From an uncultured delta proteobacterium (GTDB lineage Bacteria; Desulfobacterota; Syntrophia; Syntrophales; UBA2185): a stretch of 64,000 bases of DNA. The stretch spans positions 576,001 to 640,000 of the forward strand of contig CAVSPA010000005.1 of the NCBI GenBank assembly GCA_963729715.1. Reading direction: 5' to 3'. This document shows, piece by piece, positions 3,317-46,844 of the stretch; the stretch's first letter is position 1; each line of letters begins with the position of its first letter. The notes beneath the pieces are model-generated. The model saw only the letters and a list, made by a program, of their open reading frames with translations. It had not been told where the DNA came from and searched no databases. A program made the position numbers and the translations under genes.

Positions 3317-3784
3317 CTACTTGCCACTCTCCGGGAGCTGCACCATTACTACTTCGCCTTTCGCGCGAATCTCGCCCTCTGCAGATAGAGTGACGCTCAC
3401 AGTGACCTTCCTGCCCTCGATCTCCTTAACCCTGCCCCTGATTTCCAGGACCGGTCCCATCGGCGTTGGTTTTAGAAAATCAACTTTTATAGATGCTGAA
3501 ACAAAGCGGGAAATCGGCCGGTTATCGAGAGAAAATCCTTCCGCACGCAATTTGGCCGCCGATGCAGTAGCGGCGCCGTGACAATCCATCAATGAAGCGA
3601 TAAACCCGCCATAGACGTATCCGGGAAACCCGCCCGTGTAGAAAGTCTTGGGCGTATAATGACAGACGCTTTCTTCACCGTCCCAGTAACTCTTGATTTG
3701 CAGACCGTCTTTATTGAGCCTGCCGCAGCCGAAGCAATGAGCAAACTCATCAGGATAATAATCTTGAAATGCCCCATGCGTCAT
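3317..3784 (-). CDS. PaaI/hotdog-fold thioesterase
   Basis: HCFGCG, YGGFIASLMDCH, VDFLKPTP. Confidence 0.85.
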   Translation of the reverse strand: MTHGAFQDYYPDEFAHCFGCGRLNKDGLQIKSYWDGEESVCHYTPKTFYTGGFPGYVYGGFIASLMDCHGAATASAAKLRAEGFSLDNRPISRFVSASIKVDFLKPTPMGPVLEIRGRVKEIEGRKVTVSVTLSAEGEIRAKGEVVMVQLPESGK

Positions 3785-3793
3785 AATCTACTC

Positions 3794-4147
3794 CTATGGA
3801 TGGACTTCTTCTTCCTTTACGATCTCTTTTTTAATGATAGACAGAAGTTCCTGAAGAACGGGCATCACATCTGTTCTGAATCTTCCCGCAACGAGAACAT
3901 ACATAATGTCATCTCCTACGTTCAATATACCTTGATTGATCCACACCCTGATGTCTTCAATTCCATCCCGTCTCTTGAATTCGTTTACGCAAGAATCCAG
4001 CTTCTGTTTATCGAAGGACAACATCATGCCTCTTACGGGCTTCCCTCCCTTTGACGACGCCCTCACTATGCCATTATGGACAAGTATCATGCCCAATTGT
4101 TCAGGATCGATTCTTGCTTTTATTTCTCTGATCCAGTCATCTACCAT
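3794..4147 (-). CDS. MoaE-family molybdopterin synthase-like protein
   Basis: GMILVHNGIVR, LNVGDDIMYVLVAGRFR, IKKE; start set at MVDDWI after GGAGG. Confidence 0.8.
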   Translation of the reverse strand: MVDDWIREIKARIDPEQLGMILVHNGIVRASSKGGKPVRGMMLSFDKQKLDSCVNEFKRRDGIEDIRVWINQGILNVGDDIMYVLVAGRFRTDVMPVLQELLSIIKKEIVKEEEVHP

Positions 4148-4231
4148 CTTATCGCCTTCCTCCGGTTGTAAGGAAAACGGTGAACTCCCGTACGGTTCCA
4201 TCGGATAAGTTCTTCACAGCTCTCGCCGACG

Positions 4232-4651
4232 TCATTCCCTCACACAGTCGATCTCAGCAGAGTAGGGCTTGATGTCGAGCACCGGCGTTCCGTCAAAGGC
4301 ATCAAGGCCTCTCACGATGAGCCTGGCGCCGTCACCGCCGAGAAGATCTACTACTGCAAGTCCAACCGGATTCGGGCGGTCGGGCGAGCGCGTGGCAAAT
4401 ACTCCATGTTCTTTTTTTGAATGGGGCGGTGTGGCGCTGAGCGTGCCGCGGTCCGCCTTGTCAAGCCAGTACAGTATGATCAAATGCGGCCGCTCTGCGA
4501 TATCCTTCAGTCCCTCGGCAAATTCCGGAAAGATTTCAATCTCGCTTATTGTGGGAGAAAGCCTGCCCTGGTGCGGCGCATCGCCCTTCACCCGGTAAGG
4601 CGAGTGTATCACGCCAATGGGAACTAGTTCCAACACTCTTGTGGTATTCAT
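4232..4651 (-). CDS. tsaA: tRNA m6t6A37 methyltransferase TrmO/TsaA-family protein
   Basis: PIGVIHSPY, GVFATRSPDRPNPVG, GLDAFDGTPVLDIKPY. Confidence 0.9.
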   Translation of the reverse strand: MNTTRVLELVPIGVIHSPYRVKGDAPHQGRLSPTISEIEIFPEFAEGLKDIAERPHLIILYWLDKADRGTLSATPPHSKKEHGVFATRSPDRPNPVGLAVVDLLGGDGARLIVRGLDAFDGTPVLDIKPYSAEIDCVRE

Positions 4652-4690
4652 CTTGAAATCCTTCGCACCGTTCTTGTTGCAATATTTTCT

Positions 4691-5254
4691 TCACATGCCC
4701 CGCTTTTGCAGAGCACGGCAAAACATGACTATGGCTGTGCAGATGATGAAAATCAATATCCAGTGATAGGGGTAACCCCATCCAAGAGCATCGGGAATCG
4801 TGATCTTGCCCCAGTCGCCCCATTGCAGAAGATTATTCCTTAGGTAACTGTATGCTTCGGCGTAAATAGCTGCACCGACAAGCATCCCGGGTATGGCGCC
4901 CAGAAGGGCATCATACCGGCCTTCGGCGATGGACCCTATGCCGGTTGTGGGACAGTATCCTGCCAGCGCAAAACCGACGCCGAATATCAGGCCGCCGATG
5001 ATATTGGCCCCTACTATCGCCGATTTGGGACTCAATTTCACTATCCCTATATCTTTGAAAAAGTAAATGCCGACCATACCCACGACAATTGCCGAGAGCA
5101 TGACCTTCAACATAGTAAAATCGCGCAGGCGAAGCAGTCCGACAATCGTCTCGTAACGCGTCATCCTGCTCTTGTGGATAGTAAAGCCGAAAACAACACC
5201 AAGCGATAACCCCATCAAGAGCTTCCCGGTTGCCGATGCAATAAAGGGCGCCAT
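4691..5254 (-). CDS. YeeE/YedE-family sulfur-compound transporter half (Cys form)
   Basis: Multi-TM; GGLIFGVGFALAGYCPTT motif. Confidence 0.88.
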   Translation of the reverse strand: MAPFIASATGKLLMGLSLGVVFGFTIHKSRMTRYETIVGLLRLRDFTMLKVMLSAIVVGMVGIYFFKDIGIVKLSPKSAIVGANIIGGLIFGVGFALAGYCPTTGIGSIAEGRYDALLGAIPGMLVGAAIYAEAYSYLRNNLLQWGDWGKITIPDALGWGYPYHWILIFIICTAIVMFCRALQKRGM

Positions 5255-5259
5255 TGGTC

Positions 5260-5772
5260 TTATGTCCTCCTATAAAGGATGAGGGCGGTTATAATGCCGG
5301 AGAGAAACATAAAGGGAACGGTGATCCAACTGCTGACTGCGAGCTGCAGGGTCCCACTGACCCCATGACCCAGCGGTCAGCCGTCCGCCATGCGGGCGCC
5401 AAACATGAGAATCACTCCGCCCACGAAGGCAACTGCCCAGCGCTTCCATGGCCTGCCGCCAAATCTCTCTTTCCACATCACGGGCACAAACCTTCTGTAC
5501 AATGTACCGGAGAGCCATGCCGATATGAAAGCTCCGATGAGGACGCCTGCGACGAACATCCATTGCCAGTCGATCATCGGGACTTCCTTCAGATAATATA
5601 GAAGGCTCTTGACATGCTCGGATGCGAAAAGTTTTTCTATCATTCCGGATGTCCTCACATAGGACGTCGAGGCCCCGAGCGGAGCCACCATCAGAAAGGC
5701 GATCCAGCTCAGGACGCCAATTATGGCCCCGCCAATATATGGTGACCAGCTCTCTCGTTTCAACCAGTCCAT
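5260..5772 (-). CDS. YeeE/YedE-family transporter half, selenoprotein (Sec132)
   Basis: ORF track stops at TGA 5377-5379, but frame continues: FGARMADG-U-PLGHGVSGTLQLAVSSWITVPFMFLSGIITALILYRRT-TAA(5260), 170 aa. TGA is at the Cys of the GARLAGGCTSGHG motif; the extension ends 5 nt before the next ATG. Confidence 0.88.
5348..5364 (-). promoter_or_regulatory. Putative SECIS element for YeeE Sec codon
   Basis: mRNA GGGGUC-AGUGG-GACCCU hairpin; loop begins 18 nt after UGA. Confidence 0.6.
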
Positions 5773-5785
5773 AAGGTTTGCCTCC

Positions 5786-6412
5786 TTATTGTTTCCGTCC
5801 GATTATCAGGAAGACCGTGAATTCCCGCGACCGTCCATCTGCCGTCTCTCTTACAACGCTTGCCGCCGTCACATCCCACACGTCCTGAAACCCGCCCGCA
5901 ATGAGAAGCCGACGCATCTCCGCTCTGTCAAAACCAAAATGGACTACACCTGTCTTGTCTCTGTGAAATTCACCTTCGTCGGAATCCAGGTCGGCAATAC
6001 ATAATTGTCCTCCCGGCAAGAGGCAATTATAGAATTCATGGAAGATGTAGCCGAGATCCTCGACATGATGTAGGGTCATGCTGCAGACAACGAGGTGATA
6101 TTTATTTTTCAGCTCTATGCTCTTTTCCGGATCGATGAATTCGGTTTTGACATTGGCGAGCTTCCGCTCCGCGATCTTGGATTTAAGGACATCGAGCATG
6201 CCGTGAGACGAGTCGGCGCCTGTAATGGTTCTTACAAAAGGTTGAAGCTGCAGCGTAACCAGGCCCGTTCCGCACCCGAAATCAAGGACGTCCATGTCGC
6301 CGTTAGGCTTGATCCCGCTCATTATAGCTTTTGCCACGTCCTGCGCGAGCTTTACCCGCCCGGGCTTCAGATCATAGGATGCAGCGTCCTTGTCGAAATC
6401 CCTCTTTTCCAT
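5786..6412 (-). CDS. Class I SAM-dependent methyltransferase
   Basis: VLDFGCGTG, SMTLHH, LLPGGQLCIAD. Confidence 0.9.
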   Translation of the reverse strand: MEKRDFDKDAASYDLKPGRVKLAQDVAKAIMSGIKPNGDMDVLDFGCGTGLVTLQLQPFVRTITGADSSHGMLDVLKSKIAERKLANVKTEFIDPEKSIELKNKYHLVVCSMTLHHVEDLGYIFHEFYNCLLPGGQLCIADLDSDEGEFHRDKTGVVHFGFDRAEMRRLLIAGGFQDVWDVTAASVVRETADGRSREFTVFLIIGRKQ

Positions 6413-6468
6413 ATCCTTTGATAAATAATATTGATTACTTTTTCAAGGATGGATTTTCTGTCGCGCGA

Positions 6469-8160
6469 CTATTTTAACACTTTTACCTCAAACGGCCATC
6501 CCACGATGCCGCCTTCGATGAACTGCACCCTGTCAAATCCGGCGGCATTCAGAATCCGCTGCGCCTCATAGCCGCGCAGACTGATCTTGCAGAAAGCCAT
6601 GATGTCTTTATCTTTGGGCAGTTCCGCGGCCTTGCCTCTCAGCGCTCCCAGCGGGATGTGGAGAACGTCGTAAGGCAACTGATTGATTTCGAATTCGGCG
6701 GGAGTGCGCACATCGAGCAGAAGGACATCTCCCTTATCGATCCTCTTCTTGGCTTCGAATGCAGAAATGCCCTTGGCAAAACCGTCAAGCTTGTTGGTCA
6801 ACATGTGCGCGCATGCGGCCAGAGGATCAAGCGCCGTGCTGTACGGCGGCGCATAACCGAAGTCCACATCGGCAAGCTGATCCAGTGTGCCTCCCATCAA
6901 TATCATGCCAGCGGCCACGTCCAGACGCTTTGCGCCGTTGCCGGGGCCTGCCACCTGGACACCGATGAGCTTTCTATCCCTTCTCGATGCGATCATCTTT
7001 ATCACCAGAGGTTTATGCTCCCGCATATAGTGAGGCAAATCCGGGCCCGCAAGTGTGAATGTCTCTATGTCCATATTTAATTCCCGGGCCTGTTTTTCCG
7101 TGAGACCGGTTCTTCCAATGGTAAAATCAAAAGCCCGCACGATGGATGTGCACGTGATGCCCTTGAAGGGCGTGGGAACGCCCGCAATATGGTTGGCGAT
7201 GACCCTGCCGTGCTTGTTTGCCGTCGATCCGAGGGGCACGTAAAGAAAAGCGCCAACGCTGCCGTTAACGTAGCTGTTTACCGCGCAATCGCCACCCGCG
7301 TAGATATCTTTATTGCTCGTCTGGCAATACTCGTTGATGACGACTCCACCCTGCTTCGTACACAGAATCCCGGCCTCCCTCGCCAGTTTATCATTGGGCC
7401 GTGTCCCGACGGCAACGATCACGACGTCCGCCGGGATGCTCTGCTTGTCGGTCTTGACGGCAGTTGCCTTCTCCTTGCCTTCAATGCCGTTCACGCATTC
7501 ACCCAAAACAAGCTTTACGCCTTTCTGACGCAGGTGTTTGGCGGCAAACGTGGCGACGTCCTTATCGAGAACGCCCGGCATGATCTGATCTATCATTTCG
7601 ACAACCGTCACATCGAGTCCCTGTTGAACCAGCGCCTCCGCCATCTCGACGCCGATAAATCCGGCCCCCACGAGGACCGCCTTCTTCAGGCCCTGCTCTG
7701 CAATCTCCTTCTTCAGGCTGACGACGTGATCCGGGTGCGAAATAAACCACACATTCTTAAGATCGAGGCCGGGAACGTTCGGACGGCACGGAGACCCGCC
7801 TGTCGCCAAGACCAGTTTGTCGTAGGCCATGTCTTCTTCAGCGCCTGTTTCCAGGTTTTTTACGCGCACGGACTTTTTCGCCGGATCGATTTTCAGCACC
7901 TCCATTTGTATCAGCACCCGCACGCCTTTCGCCTTCTCGAAAAAGGCGGGGGTTCTCAGAACGCCGACCGGCGTCTTGTTCAGTTCACTGACGTCCGAGA
8001 ATAAACCCTCCACATAATAAGGGAGGCCGCAGGCACCGTAAGAAATGATTTTGCCCTTTTCAATTATGGTAATTTCCGCGTCAGGACGGAGACGCTTCAG
8101 CCTTGATGCAGCCTTTGGCCCGCAGGCCACCCCACCGATAACAAGTATTTTAAACGACAT
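6469..8160 (-). CDS. CoA-disulfide/persulfide reductase with C-terminal rhodanese domain (Npsr/CoADR-RHD-like)
   Basis: GGVACG FAD motif, SYGACGLPY active Cys, GAGFIG, YAPPYS, rhodanese LLDVRTPAEF...FCKISLRG. Confidence 0.9.
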   Translation of the reverse strand: MSFKILVIGGVACGPKAASRLKRLRPDAEITIIEKGKIISYGACGLPYYVEGLFSDVSELNKTPVGVLRTPAFFEKAKGVRVLIQMEVLKIDPAKKSVRVKNLETGAEEDMAYDKLVLATGGSPCRPNVPGLDLKNVWFISHPDHVVSLKKEIAEQGLKKAVLVGAGFIGVEMAEALVQQGLDVTVVEMIDQIMPGVLDKDVATFAAKHLRQKGVKLVLGECVNGIEGKEKATAVKTDKQSIPADVVIVAVGTRPNDKLAREAGILCTKQGGVVINEYCQTSNKDIYAGGDCAVNSYVNGSVGAFLYVPLGSTANKHGRVIANHIAGVPTPFKGITCTSIVRAFDFTIGRTGLTEKQARELNMDIETFTLAGPDLPHYMREHKPLVIKMIASRRDRKLIGVQVAGPGNGAKRLDVAAGMILMGGTLDQLADVDFGYAPPYSTALDPLAACAHMLTNKLDGFAKGISAFEAKKRIDKGDVLLLDVRTPAEFEINQLPYDVLHIPLGALRGKAAELPKDKDIMAFCKISLRGYEAQRILNAAGFDRVQFIEGGIVGWPFEVKVLK

Positions 8161-40666: not shown

Positions 40667-40880
40667 GCAGCGGAAGCGGAGTTCTTGTTTACTCCTTACT
40701 GCAATGTCATGTTTTCATTTCGGCCGCTCCCTACGGTTTATCTGAAGCCTTTGTTACGCATACTCTCCATCAGTAATTATCGACACCGCACACCAAATTG
40801 TGCGGCCATTATTACATTGACACACAAGACCGCTTATCCTATATTTTCTCCACATAAAAAGAAGTTCTTATCAAGAGACT

Positions 40881-41651
40881 ATGAGCTTACCGCTGCGCAG
40901 AACAGGACTGAACAGAGAGACGCCTTTTTTCTTCTCATGCTCTCAGTGTCTTCGTTGCTGCCACCACAAGAAAATCCAGGTCAACCCCTACGAAATCGCG
41001 CGCCTTGCTGCGAACCGGCGCCTGTCCACTGCCGAATTCATCGAACGCTACACACACGAAAGCGGAACCATTCTGAATTGGGAAGAAGACGGCGCCTGCG
41101 TCTTCCTCGATTCCCAGGGTTGCGGGGTCCATCCTGACCGTCCTCTTGTCTGTCGTCTTTACCCTCTCGGCCGCCATGTCCTTCCCTCGGGAGAGGAGAG
41201 TTTCTCCGAGATCGAGCCGAATGAGGACTGCAAGGGCGTCTATGGCGATGACGGCATGATCACGGCGTATCTCGACTCGCAGGGCGCCCGCCCTTTCATG
41301 GAAGCCGCCGACAGGTATCTCGATCTCTTCTGGAGGCTTTGCCTGATACTGGAAGAAGAGGCGGCTGAGCCCGAGAAACAAAGCGCCATCATGAGCGTGT
41401 TTAAGAAGTTTGCCGGCGGTGAACGCAACGGTGACATCGGGTTTGCCGATGTGGATGCCATAGTAGCCGCCTTCTGCGAAAAACTATGTATATCGGTACC
41501 GGAGAGTACTGACGACAAAATGTCGATCCACATACAGGCTGTTGAAGCCTGGGCAAATAACTCAGGGAGGAGACAAAAACATGAAGCAAAAAAAAAGAAA
41601 CGAACCGCCACAAAAGGATCCGGGAAAAAGCCCCTTAAGGCAAGCCATTAG
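40881..41651 (+). CDS. YkgJ-family CxxCxxCC Fe-S/Zn cluster protein (PF03692/FliB-like)
   Basis: FSCSQCLRCC, GACVFL...GCGVHPDRPLVCRLYP. Confidence 0.88.
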   Translation: MSLPLRRTGLNRETPFFFSCSQCLRCCHHKKIQVNPYEIARLAANRRLSTAEFIERYTHESGTILNWEEDGACVFLDSQGCGVHPDRPLVCRLYPLGRHVLPSGEESFSEIEPNEDCKGVYGDDGMITAYLDSQGARPFMEAADRYLDLFWRLCLILEEEAAEPEKQSAIMSVFKKFAGGERNGDIGFADVDAIVAAFCEKLCISVPESTDDKMSIHIQAVEAWANNSGRRQKHEAKKKKRTATKGSGKKPLKASH

Positions 41652-42162
41652 TGTCGCCACCGTTGTTGCCTCACTTGGAGCTTCCCTCGGCGTCAGCGTT
41701 ACTGACTTGATTGCCGCAGACCAGAAGGGCCCCATTCGCAATGAAGCGGTACAGCATAAAGATGCGGCGTCATGGGATTGGGGAAATATAAACGCAAACC
41801 AGTGGAAGCTCTCCGACCAGATCAAAACGCTCGAGGCATCTCAGTTCAAATTTTGGAACCAGGTCAAAGGGGAGTCACGGCAGGGAAAGATCAACATAAG
41901 GCAGTACAAGGAACTACAGGCAAACGAATACAAACTTGCAGACCAGATCAAGGATTTGCGGGCAAGCGATTACAATCTGTCGAACCAGTTTAAGTTCTGG
42001 CGGTCGAACATGCATAAGGGTGATCAGGCAGACCAGCTCAAAATCGACGGCCTCGAATCAAACGAACTGAAGATCGCAAACCAGCTCAAGATCCTGGAAG
42101 CCAACCAGCTCAAGATCTCAGAGCAGATGAAGATACTTCAGTCGAATCAGGATAAGCGCTGA
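41581..42162 (+). CDS. QxK-repeat protein with hydrophobic N-terminal leader/signal (possible RiPP-like precursor)
   Basis: ATG 41581 after GGAGG; AISVATVVASLGASLGVSV leader, then 14 Q-x-K units; followed by terminator. Confidence 0.75.
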   Translation: MKQKKRNEPPQKDPGKSPLRQAISVATVVASLGASLGVSVTDLIAADQKGPIRNEAVQHKDAASWDWGNINANQWKLSDQIKTLEASQFKFWNQVKGESRQGKINIRQYKELQANEYKLADQIKDLRASDYNLSNQFKFWRSNMHKGDQADQLKIDGLESNELKIANQLKILEANQLKISEQMKILQSNQDKR

Positions 42163-42194
42163 GTATAGATGAGGATACGTATCGGTAAGAAACA

Positions 42195-42225
42195 AAACCC
42201 CGCCCATCAAAAGTGGGCGGGGTTT
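42195..42225. terminator. Bidirectional intrinsic terminator
   Basis: AAACCCCGCCCA-TCAAAAG-TGGGCGGGGTTT between convergent genes. Confidence 0.85.
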
Positions 42226-42259
42226 CTAAAATTAATTTCTGTTGCGGCGTAAGGACCCA

Positions 42260-42964
42260 TCACTTCGGCTTCTTCCAGAATGGGCCGGTCTTACCGATTT
42301 CTTTCATGCCTTGAACCATCTCACGGGCGTATTCATGTATGTGTGACAGATAGTCCTTATCCATCCGCCGCCTGAAGAAAGGCCCGGAGAATAGTTTGCG
42401 TAATTGCTCCAGTGACAGGATGCCCTCGTCGGTGCCTTGGACAAAGGACTTCCAGTTGCGGACATGCTCTTCCGACCGGAAGAGATTCATCGTGCTTCAG
42501 GCATAGCCCGGATCTTCAAACCATTTCCAGAAGGGCACGGCTACATAGGCCGTGTATCCTGAGGCTTCGGCATTCAAAATGACCCCGTCCCGGATGACCA
42601 CACGGAGCGGCGCGCCGCAGTCCAAACAGGGGAAATCCACCGTCACCGCCTTGCCAGGGAATAGCCAGCAGACCGCCAGCGATTCGAATGCTCACTGGCC
42701 GAACCATTTCTGCTGACCGTCGATGGTGATCCGGTATTGGGTTGGAAGATTGTTGAAGGGAGCGAAGGAGACGATGTGGTCCGTGCGGGGATACAGCCAC
42801 GAAGGGATTCCCGAGGAGAACAGGTCGTGCATGACCTTCCGGCCTTCCTCAACGGGAAGCCCGAATTCTTGGGCAAGTTCCGTGTAAAAGGGCGCCTGCC
42901 CGGTTTCTACCATGCGTTTCATGATGATGTGAAACGCCTTCTCCAGCATTGGGGGTGCGCTCAT
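42260..42964 (-). CDS. MerB (organomercurial lyase)-fold protein with two selenocysteines (Sec91, Sec156)
   Basis: Three pieces join in one frame across TGA 42692-42694 and TGA 42497-42499 (234 aa): HTH-like N-term, PTQYRITIDGQQKWFGQ-U-AFESLAV, FPCLDCGAPLRV, PGYA-U-STMNLFRSEEH. Confidence 0.88.
42467..42484 (-). promoter_or_regulatory. SECIS for MerB-like Sec156
   Basis: CUCUUCC-GGUC-GGAAGAG perfect 7-bp stem; loop 19 nt after UGA. Confidence 0.8.
42659..42685 (-). promoter_or_regulatory. SECIS for MerB-like Sec91
   Basis: GAAU-C-GCUGGCG-GUC-UGCUGGC-U-AUUC; GGUC 17 nt after UGA, resembling the fdhF GCA-GGUC-UGC apex. Confidence 0.7.
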
Positions 42965-43652: not shown

Positions 43653-45104
43653 TTATTCTTCCTTCATGCCCATGAGCTTCTTGGCCATCTTCTTCTTAGC
43701 GTCAAAGTCCGTGAGCACGGAGATCATGAACCGCTGTGTCTGAGGGGCGCCGGCGCCGTGCCAGGTTCCCGTGCCATGCAGACCGGCTGACCAGTGCTGG
43801 AGGAACTTTGCGACCTTAAGGCGCTTGTCCGCCGGGGCTGCAGCCGCGAAAGCCTTTTTCAGCATGGGCCCGACCTCCGGGTCTTCCAGGTCCTTTTGCC
43901 TCGGCATGGTTACCACCAGGCCGCCACCGATATCTCCGGCGTTCTTGATGATTTCCCAGAATCCGTGGGCGATGTTCAGCTTGGCGGCATTGCCGAAGAG
44001 ATCGTCCGGAAGGAAGACGCCGGATCCCCTGGGTTCTTCCCTTCCCCGCATGGCTGCCGCGATAGCGCAGGCGTGGGACGTCTCGCTGAAGCGTACCATA
44101 TCAATGATCTTCTCCTGGATGTGAGGGACCTTGTCCACACCGGTGTATTCGGCGGCAAGCACGGTGCCTCCGATAACCAGGTCGGCGAATCCCACCTTGC
44201 AGGCGCCGCCGCAATTCATGCGGTGGGCCTTGGCGAACCGGGTAACCATTTTCCCGCAGAACTTGGTCTCGCCGCAGAGGAAAACTCGCTCCCAGGGAAT
44301 GAAGACATTGTCAAAAACCATCGTCGACGTTTCCCTCTGTCCGAAGACGGGATTCCCAATCTCGGCTTCGTCTTCACAAAATTCACGCTCCGCCGAGTAG
44401 GCATTGTATTGGCAGATGTATGTAAGCCCCGGTACGCTGTTTTGTACCGCAAAGGCCAGGGCAAAGGCCTCTTCGCCTTCTCTCAGGGCGCCTCCCGGCA
44501 GAACAAGTGTTTCATGCGAGCCTATGGCGCCGCTCTGGCTCACCTTGATCCCGCGTACTACGATTCCATCGTCACGTTTTTCAACAAGGTGAACGAATGT
44601 ATCGGGTTCGTCCTGCTGGGAAGGCCTCTTTTTCCTGTCTCCTTTTGCATCGGTTATCGCGCCGGAGACTGCGAGGTCGTTGGCCTGGGCGAATGCAAGC
44701 CATTTGTTAAATCTTTCATTATATTTCGTTTTCAAATCCCGGTCCATCTCCCACGTCGTAGAGGCGAGGCTGTTGAGTGCATCGCAACCCACGCAGCGGT
44801 AATTGCAGGTACCCACCGTCTGGCTCGTCAAGAGGGCCATCTCCTGCCGCATGTCGAGGTCGTGGATATTGCGTGCCACGTTAAGGTTGCGGTTGATCGC
44901 TTCCCCCGTCAGGTGCGATGTAGCGACCATGATTCCCTTGTATTTCGGGTCTTCAGCGAGCTCGTAAATCGCCGCGTTGGCCATAACCATGGAACGCGTA
45001 ATTTTGTTGTTGAGCAGATTCTTCACCCATTTACCCCCGCAATAGACGCGGGGCGACAGCTTCTTCATACTGTCCAGATATTCCTTTGCAGTCTTTAAAG
45101 CCAT
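43653..45104 (-). CDS. Divergent 4-hydroxybutyryl-CoA dehydratase/HpaB-family [4Fe-4S]-FAD protein
   Basis: GTCNYRCVG, TDAKGDR, VFDNVFIPWERVF, HRMNCGGACK, HGAGAP; same length as the canonical paralog at 53471. Confidence 0.85.
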   Translation of the reverse strand: MALKTAKEYLDSMKKLSPRVYCGGKWVKNLLNNKITRSMVMANAAIYELAEDPKYKGIMVATSHLTGEAINRNLNVARNIHDLDMRQEMALLTSQTVGTCNYRCVGCDALNSLASTTWEMDRDLKTKYNERFNKWLAFAQANDLAVSGAITDAKGDRKKRPSQQDEPDTFVHLVEKRDDGIVVRGIKVSQSGAIGSHETLVLPGGALREGEEAFALAFAVQNSVPGLTYICQYNAYSAEREFCEDEAEIGNPVFGQRETSTMVFDNVFIPWERVFLCGETKFCGKMVTRFAKAHRMNCGGACKVGFADLVIGGTVLAAEYTGVDKVPHIQEKIIDMVRFSETSHACAIAAAMRGREEPRGSGVFLPDDLFGNAAKLNIAHGFWEIIKNAGDIGGGLVVTMPRQKDLEDPEVGPMLKKAFAAAAPADKRLKVAKFLQHWSAGLHGTGTWHGAGAPQTQRFMISVLTDFDAKKKMAKKLMGMKEE

Positions 45105-45509: not shown

Positions 45510-46844
45510 TTACATCTTTCCCCTGAGAGACTGGGCCGCGATGTGGATGGCGTCCCAGGCGCCTCCGAAGGGCGGCGCGTATGGAAGATCAAGGTAGCCG
45601 ACCTCATCCACGGAGAGTCCTGCCCATAGGGCGACAGAAAGGCTGCTGATTCGTTGAACGGCCCCTTTCTCACCGATGCACTGCCCGCCGAGAAGTTTTC
45701 CCGTCTTCTTGTCTCCGACAAGTTTCACGCCCATCTTCTCCCCTTTAGCCATGGGACGGCCAACGGGAAGACCCCAGATCATGGTGCTCACCGGCTGGAA
45801 TCCATATTTTGCGGCTTCCTCCTCCGTAAGTCCGGTGGCAGCCACCTCCAGTTTGAATACCTTGAAGGCCTGAGCACCCACGACACCCGGAAACTCCGCC
45901 GGGTAACCGCCGATGTTTTGACCGGCAACACGGCCCTGCTTGTTGGCAACATCGCCGAGGGGAAAATAGACCCACCGGCCGGCGACTTTGTGAAATACCT
46001 CACAGCAGTCTCCCACTGCGTAAACCCCTTCCCGGGATGTCTTCTGCCGGAGATCCACCGTGATGGCGCCACTTTCCCCTAAGGCAATTCCCATGGATTC
46101 GGCAAGCGCGGCATTCCGCTTTGTTCCCACTCCCATCAGCACGAGATCGGCATCCAGCTCGCCGCCGCTGGTATGAAGATTCAACCTGTATTCCTTCCCT
46201 TTTTCAATCGATAGAGGCTTCGTCTCCGGAAGGAATTCCACCTGGTTCTTGGCCAGCTCTTCCACTATCATCTTCGTGAATTCGGCATCCCACCGTACGG
46301 CCGGCCGGGGCAGGATGTCCATGACCTTCACTTCAATTCCCAGGCTTCGGAGCGCCTCACACATCTCCATACCGATATAGCCCGCACCGATCAGAACCGC
46401 TTTCCTGCAGCTCTTTTCGTTCAGGTAGGATTTCATCTTCAAGGCGTCGCTCAAGTCTCTGAAGACATAGACGCCGTCCATGTCTTTGCCCGGAATATCC
46501 AGGCGGATCGCTTCGGCCCCTGTCGCCATGACCAGGAAGTCGTAAGGAAGACTCGTGCCGTCTGATAACGAGAGAGATCCCTTTTGAGGATCGACACTGT
46601 CCACGCGCGTCTTGATTTTTACGTCGATGCCCGTTTTCTTGAATTCTTCCGGCGTACGGATGACGAGCCTCTTTGACTCTTTGATTACATCACCGATGTA
46701 ATAAGGCATCGGTCAGGCCGCATAGGAAACAAAGTCACCCTTCTCAATCATCGTCACTTCCAGAGAAGGGTTTCTTCTTTTGGCCTCGGCAGCCGAAGAC
46801 GGGCCTGCCGCCCCGCCTCCCACTATAACCAGTTTTTGACCCAT
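45510..46844 (-). CDS. CoA-disulfide reductase/NADH oxidase-like flavoprotein, selenoprotein (Sec44)
   Basis: True start ATG 46844 (GGAGG RBS): MGQKLVIVGGGAAG...FVSYAA-U(TGA 46713-46715)-PMPYYIG; 444 aa. The ORF track version lacks the FAD-binding N-terminus. Confidence 0.92.
46684..46702 (-). promoter_or_regulatory. SECIS for flavoprotein Sec44
   Basis: AUUACAUC-GGU-GAUGUAAU perfect 8-bp stem; loop 18 nt after UGA. Confidence 0.8.

Follow-up and report, generated by a model that had tools for sequence, protein, structure and literature searches.

A conserved pair of a YkgJ-type cysteine-cluster protein and a signal-peptide-bearing QxK-repeat protein: a candidate leader-guided protein modification module of anaerobic bacteria

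A small locus of an uncultured delta proteobacterium (Syntrophales; UBA2185) raises the question of why a gene for a cysteine-cluster protein of the YkgJ type should run into a gene for a small protein with many Gln-x-Lys (QxK) repeats. The locus lies in a stretch of 64,000 nt, here called the window (CAVSPA010000005.1, positions 576,001-640,000, forward strand). Gene A (40881..41651, plus strand) is an open reading frame (ORF) with a match to PF03692 and encodes a YkgJ-subfamily cysteine-cluster protein of 256 aa (P0001), and gene B (41581..42162, plus strand, stop codon at 42160-42162) is an ORF for the QxK-repeat protein of 193 aa (P0002). An earlier note on this DNA had described the two ORFs with a 71-nt overlap and proposed that the first product modifies the second. 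Both ORFs are present as claimed; their overlap is 71 nt long, and B is read in frame +1 relative to A. Linkage across genomes supports a functional coupling of the two genes and shows the pair to be a conserved module. A specific physical and functional partnership of the two proteins is highly probable, and the chances appear about even that A is a leader-dependent Fe-S enzyme that modifies the repeat lysines of B before export by the Sec pathway, with the signal peptide doubling as leader.

Linkage of the two genes is strict from both sides, as the earlier note had suggested checking. Homologues of B are found by a word-indexed search (28) and by an exhaustive search (23 cluster representatives), and nearly all of them are 100-200 aa long. 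Within the order of the window, B is matched in six of 201 genomes, including its own genome and a genome with a 30-aa fragment, and it is therefore a patchy gene. The fragment (G120, locus L006, E 1.7e-4), with no YkgJ gene nearby, is dismissed as noise. All four strong foreign loci of this order scan have a YkgJ homologue immediately 5' of B in the same orientation, in flanks that differ from locus to locus. The same arrangement is found in 12/12 loci from genome_contigs, which come from metagenome-assembled genomes (MAGs) labelled Syntrophaceae, Smithella, Smithellaceae, Syntrophales, Desulfuromonadales, Desulfobacterales or 'delta proteobacterium' and in which the identity of B falls to 30-35%. 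The YkgJ gene mostly overlaps B in the loci of these two sets; in most lineages, A and B are arranged without overlap. From the side of A, 992 proteins match P0001 at E <= 0.001, and many of them are proteins of about 227 aa with about 50% identity, recorded from Geobacteraceae, Chlorobiales, Thermodesulfovibrionales, Betaproteobacteria, Syntrophobacteraceae, Syntrophorhabdaceae and Desulfobacterales. Metagenomes were scanned with an alignment of 17 of these YkgJ proteins as the query, and the best 80 of 483 confirmed loci (40-88% identity in A) were analysed. A hidden Markov model (HMM) of the B leader matches 60 of the 5716 ORFs in the 410 kb of these loci, one per locus; every one of the 60 lies at the 3' end of its YkgJ gene, in the same orientation, and no others are matched. 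As for the remaining 20 loci, a partner is recognised by eye in 11, no more than 53 nt follow the YkgJ gene in seven, and two (L057 and L108) are partnerless despite room. The pair is thus present in 71 of the 73 loci with room downstream, including one (L062) in which the leader is present and the ORF ends after 50 aa.

The linkage bears on the plainest rival explanation, namely that B is an ordinary secreted coiled-coil protein of the Lpp or FtsB kind sharing an operon with a housekeeping YkgJ gene. One homologue of B is named 'cell division protein FtsB' in a JGI record, the leucine-zipper family PF10473 matches B weakly (18.6 bits; cut-off 34.5), and one giant eukaryotic coiled-coil protein is matched through its 14-residue repeat. 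A link of this strictness across lineages with different flanks argues against such chance company, as does the fact that the own genome holds three PF03692 genes and one B-like gene, with the partner at gene A alone; the predicted complex and the spacing of the motif, described below, point the same way, and the absence of any functional link is very improbable. The length-unrestricted representative search yields no YkgJ-B fusion; its sole long match, a eukaryotic coiled-coil protein of 3829 aa, is hit via the 14-residue repeat and is set aside as compositional.

The partners are defined by two elements, a conserved N-terminus and a repeated motif. In 59 distinct partners, the N-terminus consists of a basic stretch, a hydrophobic segment patterned as (L/I)A(V/I)A(A/T)xxASLGxSLGV, about eight further residues and an AxA-type end such as ...DVLA|A, ...AHA|A or ...ALA|A. 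Read from sequence, the 59 partners show the basic n-region, the h-region of 15-20 residues and the small residues at -3 and -1 that are typical of Sec substrates; in layout, the N-terminus is like a Sec signal peptide, though unusually conserved for one. The motif, in a logo of 354 occurrences from the 59 partners, reads [S/A] (81%)-[N>D]-Q-x-K-[L/I/F/V]. In the pooled mature regions of 57 partners, QxK is found 354 times against 76.0 expected (4.7x) and the reversed KxQ 13 times against 76.0 (0.17x), while QxR (11 against 15.0; 0.73x) is not enriched and ExK (82 against 34.2; 2.4x) makes up about one motif in five. Lysine is therefore specifically required, and glutamine is partly replaceable by glutamate. 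In these regions, which are free of Cys, 56% of the Lys and 62% of the Gln belong to QxK. When each partner is shuffled separately, none of 500 shuffles reaches the observed QxK count in 36/59 partners and at most five of 500 do so in 45/59, with two others incomplete. The period of the motif differs among lineages, being six residues in L109 and L105, seven in L021 and L095, eight to nine in L046 and L047, and 14 in the window. Since the motif survives these changes of period, it is not a by-product of heptad packing, and heptad periodicity is not a property of the family, as the relatives with periods of six and of eight to nine residues demonstrate. The QxK unit picked out in the earlier note is accordingly a motif in its own right, enriched and kept across periods.

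Protein B of the window has both elements. Its signal-peptide-like leader (aa 1-46; 41581..41718, plus strand) comprises a basic n-region, the h-region AISVATVVASLGASLGVSV and a TDLIAA end. Nine of the 11 columns invariant in the Syntrophales group fall in it (V29, L32, G33, S35, L36, G37, L43, A45 and A46), and small-xxx-small spacing is seen in the h-region (G33/G37; S31, S35 and S39). The repeat region (aa 56-192; 41746..42156, plus strand) holds, by motif count, 14 QxK and two ExK units, so that all of the 14 motifs and the variants ANEYK and SNELK listed previously are present, with QxK spacings of 6, 7, 8, 14 and 16 residues. In 5000 composition-preserving shuffles of the part after residue 46, 2.19 +/- 1.32 QxK are expected and the maximum is seven, so that 14 is never reached. 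No Pfam or NCBIfam family is assigned to B or to six other partners; the Pfam models of the curlin repeat, Lpp and FtsB do not match B at E up to 1, and the ESM Atlas gives no usable match to P0002. In the model of B alone, long helices are predicted at 67-101, 106-143 and 149-192 (predicted local distance difference test, pLDDT, 85-95), while residues 1-64 are disordered (pLDDT about 40), as is expected of a segment that becomes ordered only on its partner. A coiled-coil, offered as the alternative in the earlier note, thus suits the mature domain of this copy with its three long predicted helices and fails as an explanation of the motif, which recurs at six-residue periods in relatives.

Protein A is best read, from its sequence, as a cytoplasmic cysteine-cluster protein that has an Fe-S or other metal centre and belongs to a YkgJ subfamily of its own, whose core spans about 227 aa. 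PF03692 matches P0001 at aa 20-97 with E 1.2e-13 and 51.9 bits (cut-off 23). This CxxCxxCC metal-binding domain (40938..41171, plus strand) contains the most conserved motif of A, VHPDRPLVCRLYPLGR. In an alignment of 17 relatives, C20, C23, C26, C27, C73, C81, C91, C117, C199, H84 and H217 are invariant, giving nine invariant Cys where PF03692 is described by about eight metal-ligand Cys including CxxCxxCC; the motif VHPDRPLVCRLYP is kept together with them. D190, D192, C199 and H217 are invariant, subfamily-specific and located outside the PF03692 domain. In NCBIfam, no family is assigned to three YkgJ forms of about 227 aa that were tested. Phage proteins supply a single weak match to P0001 (30.9% identity over aa 20-119, E 6e-5). 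In the AlphaFold2 (AF2) model of A (pLDDT 79.5, predicted template modelling score 0.74), a Cys-rich beta domain at the N-terminus is followed by a helical domain (127-228) and by a disordered tail that is rich in Lys; helices are placed at 137-161, 164-178, 191-202 and 210-245. The tail (aa 229-256; 41565..41648, plus strand; pLDDT <=50) is coded by the overlap with B and is found solely where A overlaps B, the relatives of about 227 aa stopping at '...AWAA'. Structural relatives are not apparent for the A model: Foldseek finds nothing in the PDB at E <= 0.001, a wide VIA-align comparison gives a best Z of 4.0 from helical fragments only, and a PDB sequence profile search finds nothing below E 0.5.

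How A and B might meet is suggested by complex prediction, in which the pair scores ipSAE 0.84, 0.81 and 0.77 (median 0.81), while the highest of three controls reaches 0.01. The mark applied to this score is reached by 116/157 solved complexes and 2/215 mismatched pairs, these counts being approximate because of the use of own alignments. At least 69% of contacts recur between the runs, and the partner has a pLDDT of at least 70. No similar complex has been solved, and therefore this result is unlikely to reflect a memorised structure. The model thus supports binding of B by A. On the side of B, the predicted interface includes residues 18-44 in the leader, 51 and 53-63, the last stretch including the first QxK (Q58-H59-K60), which is placed in a low-confidence linker; on the side of A, it includes residues 143-189 and 221-228 of the helical domain and residues 26, 29-36, 60-64, 89-102, 109 and 111 of the Cys-rich domain. 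This interface takes in seven of the 11 invariant columns of B, and of the 55 residues that A contributes to it, 19 are invariant. The contacts of lowest error join B 23-36 to A 143-173 and 221, all of them linking the leader with either A helices or N35. The helical C-terminal domain (aa 127-228; 41259..41564, plus strand) is hence, by the AF2 model and the complex prediction, the predicted leader-binding surface, and the proposal of the earlier note that B carries a leader holds up in that the hydrophobic N-terminal segment is both the best-conserved part of B and its predicted docking element on the YkgJ protein.

Cytosolic chaperones such as TorD and DmsD, the redox enzyme maturation proteins of the Tat pathway, and the Eag chaperones of the type VI secretion system (T6SS) are encoded beside their clients and bind a hydrophobic N-terminal targeting segment. 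The principal rival to an enzymatic role is a chaperone or escort of this kind: dedicated to B and working in the cytosol, A would shield the hydrophobic N-terminal segment of its client until export without modifying it; the metal cluster of A might then serve as a redox gate, and QxK would have a structural or binding role outside the cytoplasm. It is favoured by the lowest-error contacts, all of which join the leader to the helical domain, and by the position of the pair between hcp and vgrG in four loci and beside a CsgG-like gene in two, which are settings of cargo and chaperone. On the other hand, it leaves unexplained the nine invariant Cys with the VHPDRPLVCRLYP motif, as well as the preference for Lys over Arg two residues past Gln in every lineage. 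The two characterised relatives, FliB and DpdM, are enzymes, and A, which as far as the PDB comparisons reach (best Z 4.0) is unrelated in fold to TorD, DmsD and Eag, has an invariant metal-Cys site of the sort seen in families of enzymes. We regard a pure chaperone as rather unlikely. The same segment of B can also be read as an N-in membrane anchor, in which a glycine-zipper-like SLGxSLG helix would tether or regulate A and the QxK region would form a periplasmic coiled-coil stalk. The h-region is more conserved than is usual in a cleaved signal peptide and has small-xxx-small spacing, in this copy the mature domain is modelled as a long bundle of helices, and FliB is reported to be membrane-associated (PMC8598068). 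However, almost all of the 59 partners have an AxA-type site after the h-region, the segment is buried in the soluble helical domain of A in the predicted complex, which is incompatible with a membrane span, and short partners with six-residue repeats are unable to form a coiled-coil stalk. An anchor is accordingly improbable.

In the preferred explanation, A and B would form a self-contained enzyme-substrate module. The helical C-terminal domain of A would bind the signal-peptide-like segment of B (ASLGxSLGV...LA|A) and thereby hold the unfolded repeat region against the conserved Cys-rich domain, where A would modify the repeated [SA]-N-Q-x-K motifs, most likely at the epsilon-amine of Lys. 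Modified B would then pass to the Sec pathway, cleavage at the AxA-type site would remove the leader, and the product with its QxK repeats would act outside the cytoplasm. Here we infer catalysis, target residue, chemistry, export, leader cleavage and product function alike. Covalent modification of the repeats, taken by itself, is about as probable as its absence.

The chemistry of such a modification is suggested by analogy. To our knowledge, FliB and DpdM are the only members of the YkgJ/CxxCxxCC superfamily with known activities. FliB of Salmonella is a flagellin lysine N-methyltransferase that depends on S-adenosylmethionine (SAM) and needs an oxygen-sensitive [4Fe-4S] cluster, with a CX4CX3CC cluster motif and eight conserved Cys; it methylates flagellin Lys in the cytosol, flagellin being exported later, and its reaction yields S-adenosylhomocysteine and methylthioadenosine and no 5'-deoxyadenosine (PMC8598068). 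DpdM, a phage enzyme of the DUF3109 family described as homologous to E. coli YkgJ, has CxxxCxxCC with two predicted metal sites of four Cys each and N-methylates dPreQ1 at its aminomethyl group in vivo (bioRxiv 10.1101/2023.04.13.536721). Both known cases are therefore N-methylations of a primary alkyl amine, a precedent that bears on how A may work and not on its family membership. Like A, FliB is a PF03692-related cysteine-cluster protein, and it acts on many Lys of a protein exported later; DpdM belongs to the same superfamily and has a Cys spacing similar to C27/C73/C81/C91 of A. Unlike FliB, whose model has 373 positions, A has about 227 aa and a CX2CX2CC spacing in place of CX4CX3CC, and its presumed substrate B is small, repetitive, of Sec type and provided with a leader, whereas FliB acts on flagellin; the DpdM substrate, as described, is a modified base in DNA, unlike the putative protein substrate of A. 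The suggestion of the earlier note that repeat Lys is methylated is favoured in so far as Arg does not stand in for Lys and both precedents are N-methylases, and it loses ground in so far as P0001 is not a FliB equivalog. Among the candidate reactions, N-methylation is the most likely by this analogy, although as a specific assignment it is tentative and rather more likely to be wrong than right. Radical SAM chemistry is not indicated, P0001 being without a PF04055 match and the spacing of its Cys motif not being CX3CX2C.

Several observations weigh against an enzymatic reading of the pair. The FliB equivalog NF038110 gives P0001 only 15.4 bits (E 0.01; cut-off 85), in an alignment confined to aa 18-83, the N-terminal Cys motif, and to model positions 7-83. 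DUF3109 is absent from the Pfam matches of P0001, where PF03692 alone is listed at E up to 1, and no SAM-binding element is identifiable in A, a point that also favours a chaperone. (The lack of a FliB model match in the own genome is uninformative, as 14 control genomes are without one too.) The three complex controls were unrelated proteins rather than other signal peptides, so that generic binding of a hydrophobic helix is conceivable, and the closeness of the first QxK (Q58-K60) to the Cys cluster of A is read from residue lists, the pairings covering leader-helix contacts only. Enrichment of QxK is weak in 12 of the 57 full-length partners, in which seven to 350 of 500 shuffles reach the count; in Syntrophales proteins P0026-P0029, E or R has taken over at some positions of the repeat; and distant YkgJ relatives (L022-L029; 38-51% identity) are partnerless within flanks of 1.5 kb, two of these contigs being cut.

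A different reaction, also suggested in the earlier note, is transamidation between Gln and Lys, by which A would form an i,i+2 lactam staple or an intermolecular isopeptide with a loss of 17 Da per site. Q and K are both conserved in a fixed order and spacing, as the depletion of KxQ illustrates, and C199, H217, D190 and D192 could conceivably form a Cys-His-Asp triad. Glutamate without ATP cannot serve as an acyl donor, and its frequent replacement of Gln argues against this chemistry; in addition, no family relative is known to carry it out, and no transglutaminase-like domain is found in the Pfam search. Transamidation is thus improbable.

The pair resembles the maturation of ribosomally synthesized and post-translationally modified peptides (RiPPs) in that a small precursor gene adjoins an enzyme gene, at all of the 12 and four loci and at 71/73 metagenome loci, and in that A is the predicted docking site of a conserved leader at the N-terminus of B, whose C-terminal region is variable and has many copies of a motif. 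Unlike RiPP systems, it has no RiPP recognition element (RRE)/PqqD domain, radical SAM enzyme, dedicated protease or ABC exporter, as judged by Pfam and by the flanks of the loci; its leader is Sec-signal-like, and its products have 50-150 residues and, in this copy, are predicted to form a helical bundle. A Pfam survey of the flanks of 35 pair loci finds no third gene common to them overall, and none of the radical SAM, sulfotransferase and peptidase genes that the earlier note had wished to see beside the pair travels with it overall. A class I methyltransferase gene (L048) and a B12/radical SAM gene (L101) occur once each and are taken as chance neighbours. Full-text searches of the literature on the YkgJ superfamily, and the curated family libraries Pfam and NCBIfam, yielded no description of a YkgJ-peptide pair.

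Neighbouring genes of certain lineages are consistent with an exported product. In a subclade of four loci (L090, L098, L102 and L106), hcp lies upstream and vgrG downstream of the pair on the same strand (about 3400-7300), and in L089 hcp is followed by the contig end. The vgrG genes of this subclade encode Phage_GPD plus Phage_base_V, and its partners end in a conserved P-x-x-P-P-R-like tail; in L102, a papain-family protease and a chagasin-type inhibitor are encoded between hcp and the pair. A gene for a CsgG-like outer-membrane channel lies beside the pair in two of the 35 loci (L016:1555-2283 and L059:2007-2732), and a subtilase gene lies upstream in three (L094, L099 and L104). Like the curli system (CsgA, CsgG), B is a Sec-signal protein with short Gln/Asn-rich repeats, and the CsgG-like neighbour fits this comparison; unlike curli, there is no curlin-repeat Pfam match, the motif is QxK, this copy is helical rather than beta, and the CsgG link belongs to one subclade. 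At these two loci, a further gene of about 400 aa is found beside the pair, and the partners are one divergent subtype. In L104 (2487-2804) and also in L085, L094, L099 and L107, an extra ORF directly follows the partner; such ORFs are either small with a signal-like AAAVAALGASVG segment or secreted and Pro/Ala-rich, and may be tandem partners.

Gene B most likely starts at ATG 41581, judging from the Shine-Dalgarno sequence GGGAGGAG (41565..41572, plus strand) that precedes it and from an AGGAGG-like site at the equivalent place in 9/9 related loci. A promoter-like site (TTGACA-17 nt-TATATT; 40817..40845, plus strand), with an 11/12 consensus match, lies 35 nt 5' of gene A; two sites of such quality are present in the 2-kb region where 1.6 are expected, so that this one is to be taken as a consensus match only. 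A G+C-rich hairpin of 13 pairs, eight of them G-C (42194..42226, strand-neutral), follows gene B. It was flagged on the minus strand by the scan, its plus-strand T run is short, and it is likely the terminator common to B and the convergent neighbour gene. Within the A/B overlap lies a run of nine A (41588-41596), which codes for Lys in both frames and at which loss of one base would fuse A and B in frame; the equivalent run has 7-9 A in 7/9 Syntrophales-type loci and 4-5 A in 2/9. A programmed frameshift from A into B at this run was considered and rejected, as B has a strong ribosome binding site of its own, most lineages have no overlap and the run is short in two of nine loci. Among the 12 genome_contigs loci are two from long-read MAGs (L010/L005 and L017) in which the YkgJ gene is in two frames, and the partner of L010/L005 has an internal TAA; decay or homopolymer assembly error may account for both.

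The flanks of the window locus, with an EamA transporter gene upstream and a MerB-like gene and an isochorismatase gene downstream in convergent orientation, are not common to the pair loci of other lineages. The MerB-like gene (42263-42964, minus strand) has two in-frame TGA codons, at positions 91 and 156 if read as selenocysteine, and matches NF040728 (SaoL; 30 bits) and NF009710 (MerB; 29 bits) weakly, both below cut-off. Farther away on the minus strand lie a gene like those of 4-hydroxyphenylacetate hydroxylase and 4-hydroxybutyryl-CoA dehydratase (43653-45104), whose orthologue in locus L007 has HpaB_N and HpaB domains, and a gene for a pyridine-nucleotide disulfide oxidoreductase (45510-46709). 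The latter two are ordinary metabolic neighbours, absent from the other loci of the pair.

In its widest form, the proposal is that anaerobes share a widespread maturation of ribosomally made proteins, in which a Sec signal serves as leader for a non-radical-SAM CxxCxxCC enzyme that modifies the Lys of [SA]NQxK many times, by poly-N-methylation or Gln-Lys stapling, before export, and which in some lineages is tied to CsgG-like channels or Hcp/VgrG machines; for this generalisation, the prospects fall somewhat short of even. The YkgJ/CxxCxxCC superfamily is very large, PF03692 being matched in 10/14 control genomes. If the proposal is correct, the superfamily would gain a second tractable protein substrate, with a clear recognition element and target motif, and non-canonical Fe-S methyl-transfer chemistry would become directly testable. 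It would also be a further case of an export signal read by a modifying enzyme. The products would represent a new family of secreted Gln/Lys-repeat proteins in anaerobes of sediment and peat, among them syntrophs and bacteria related to sulfate and metal reducers; for these proteins, surface layer, adhesion or matrix are candidate extracellular roles.

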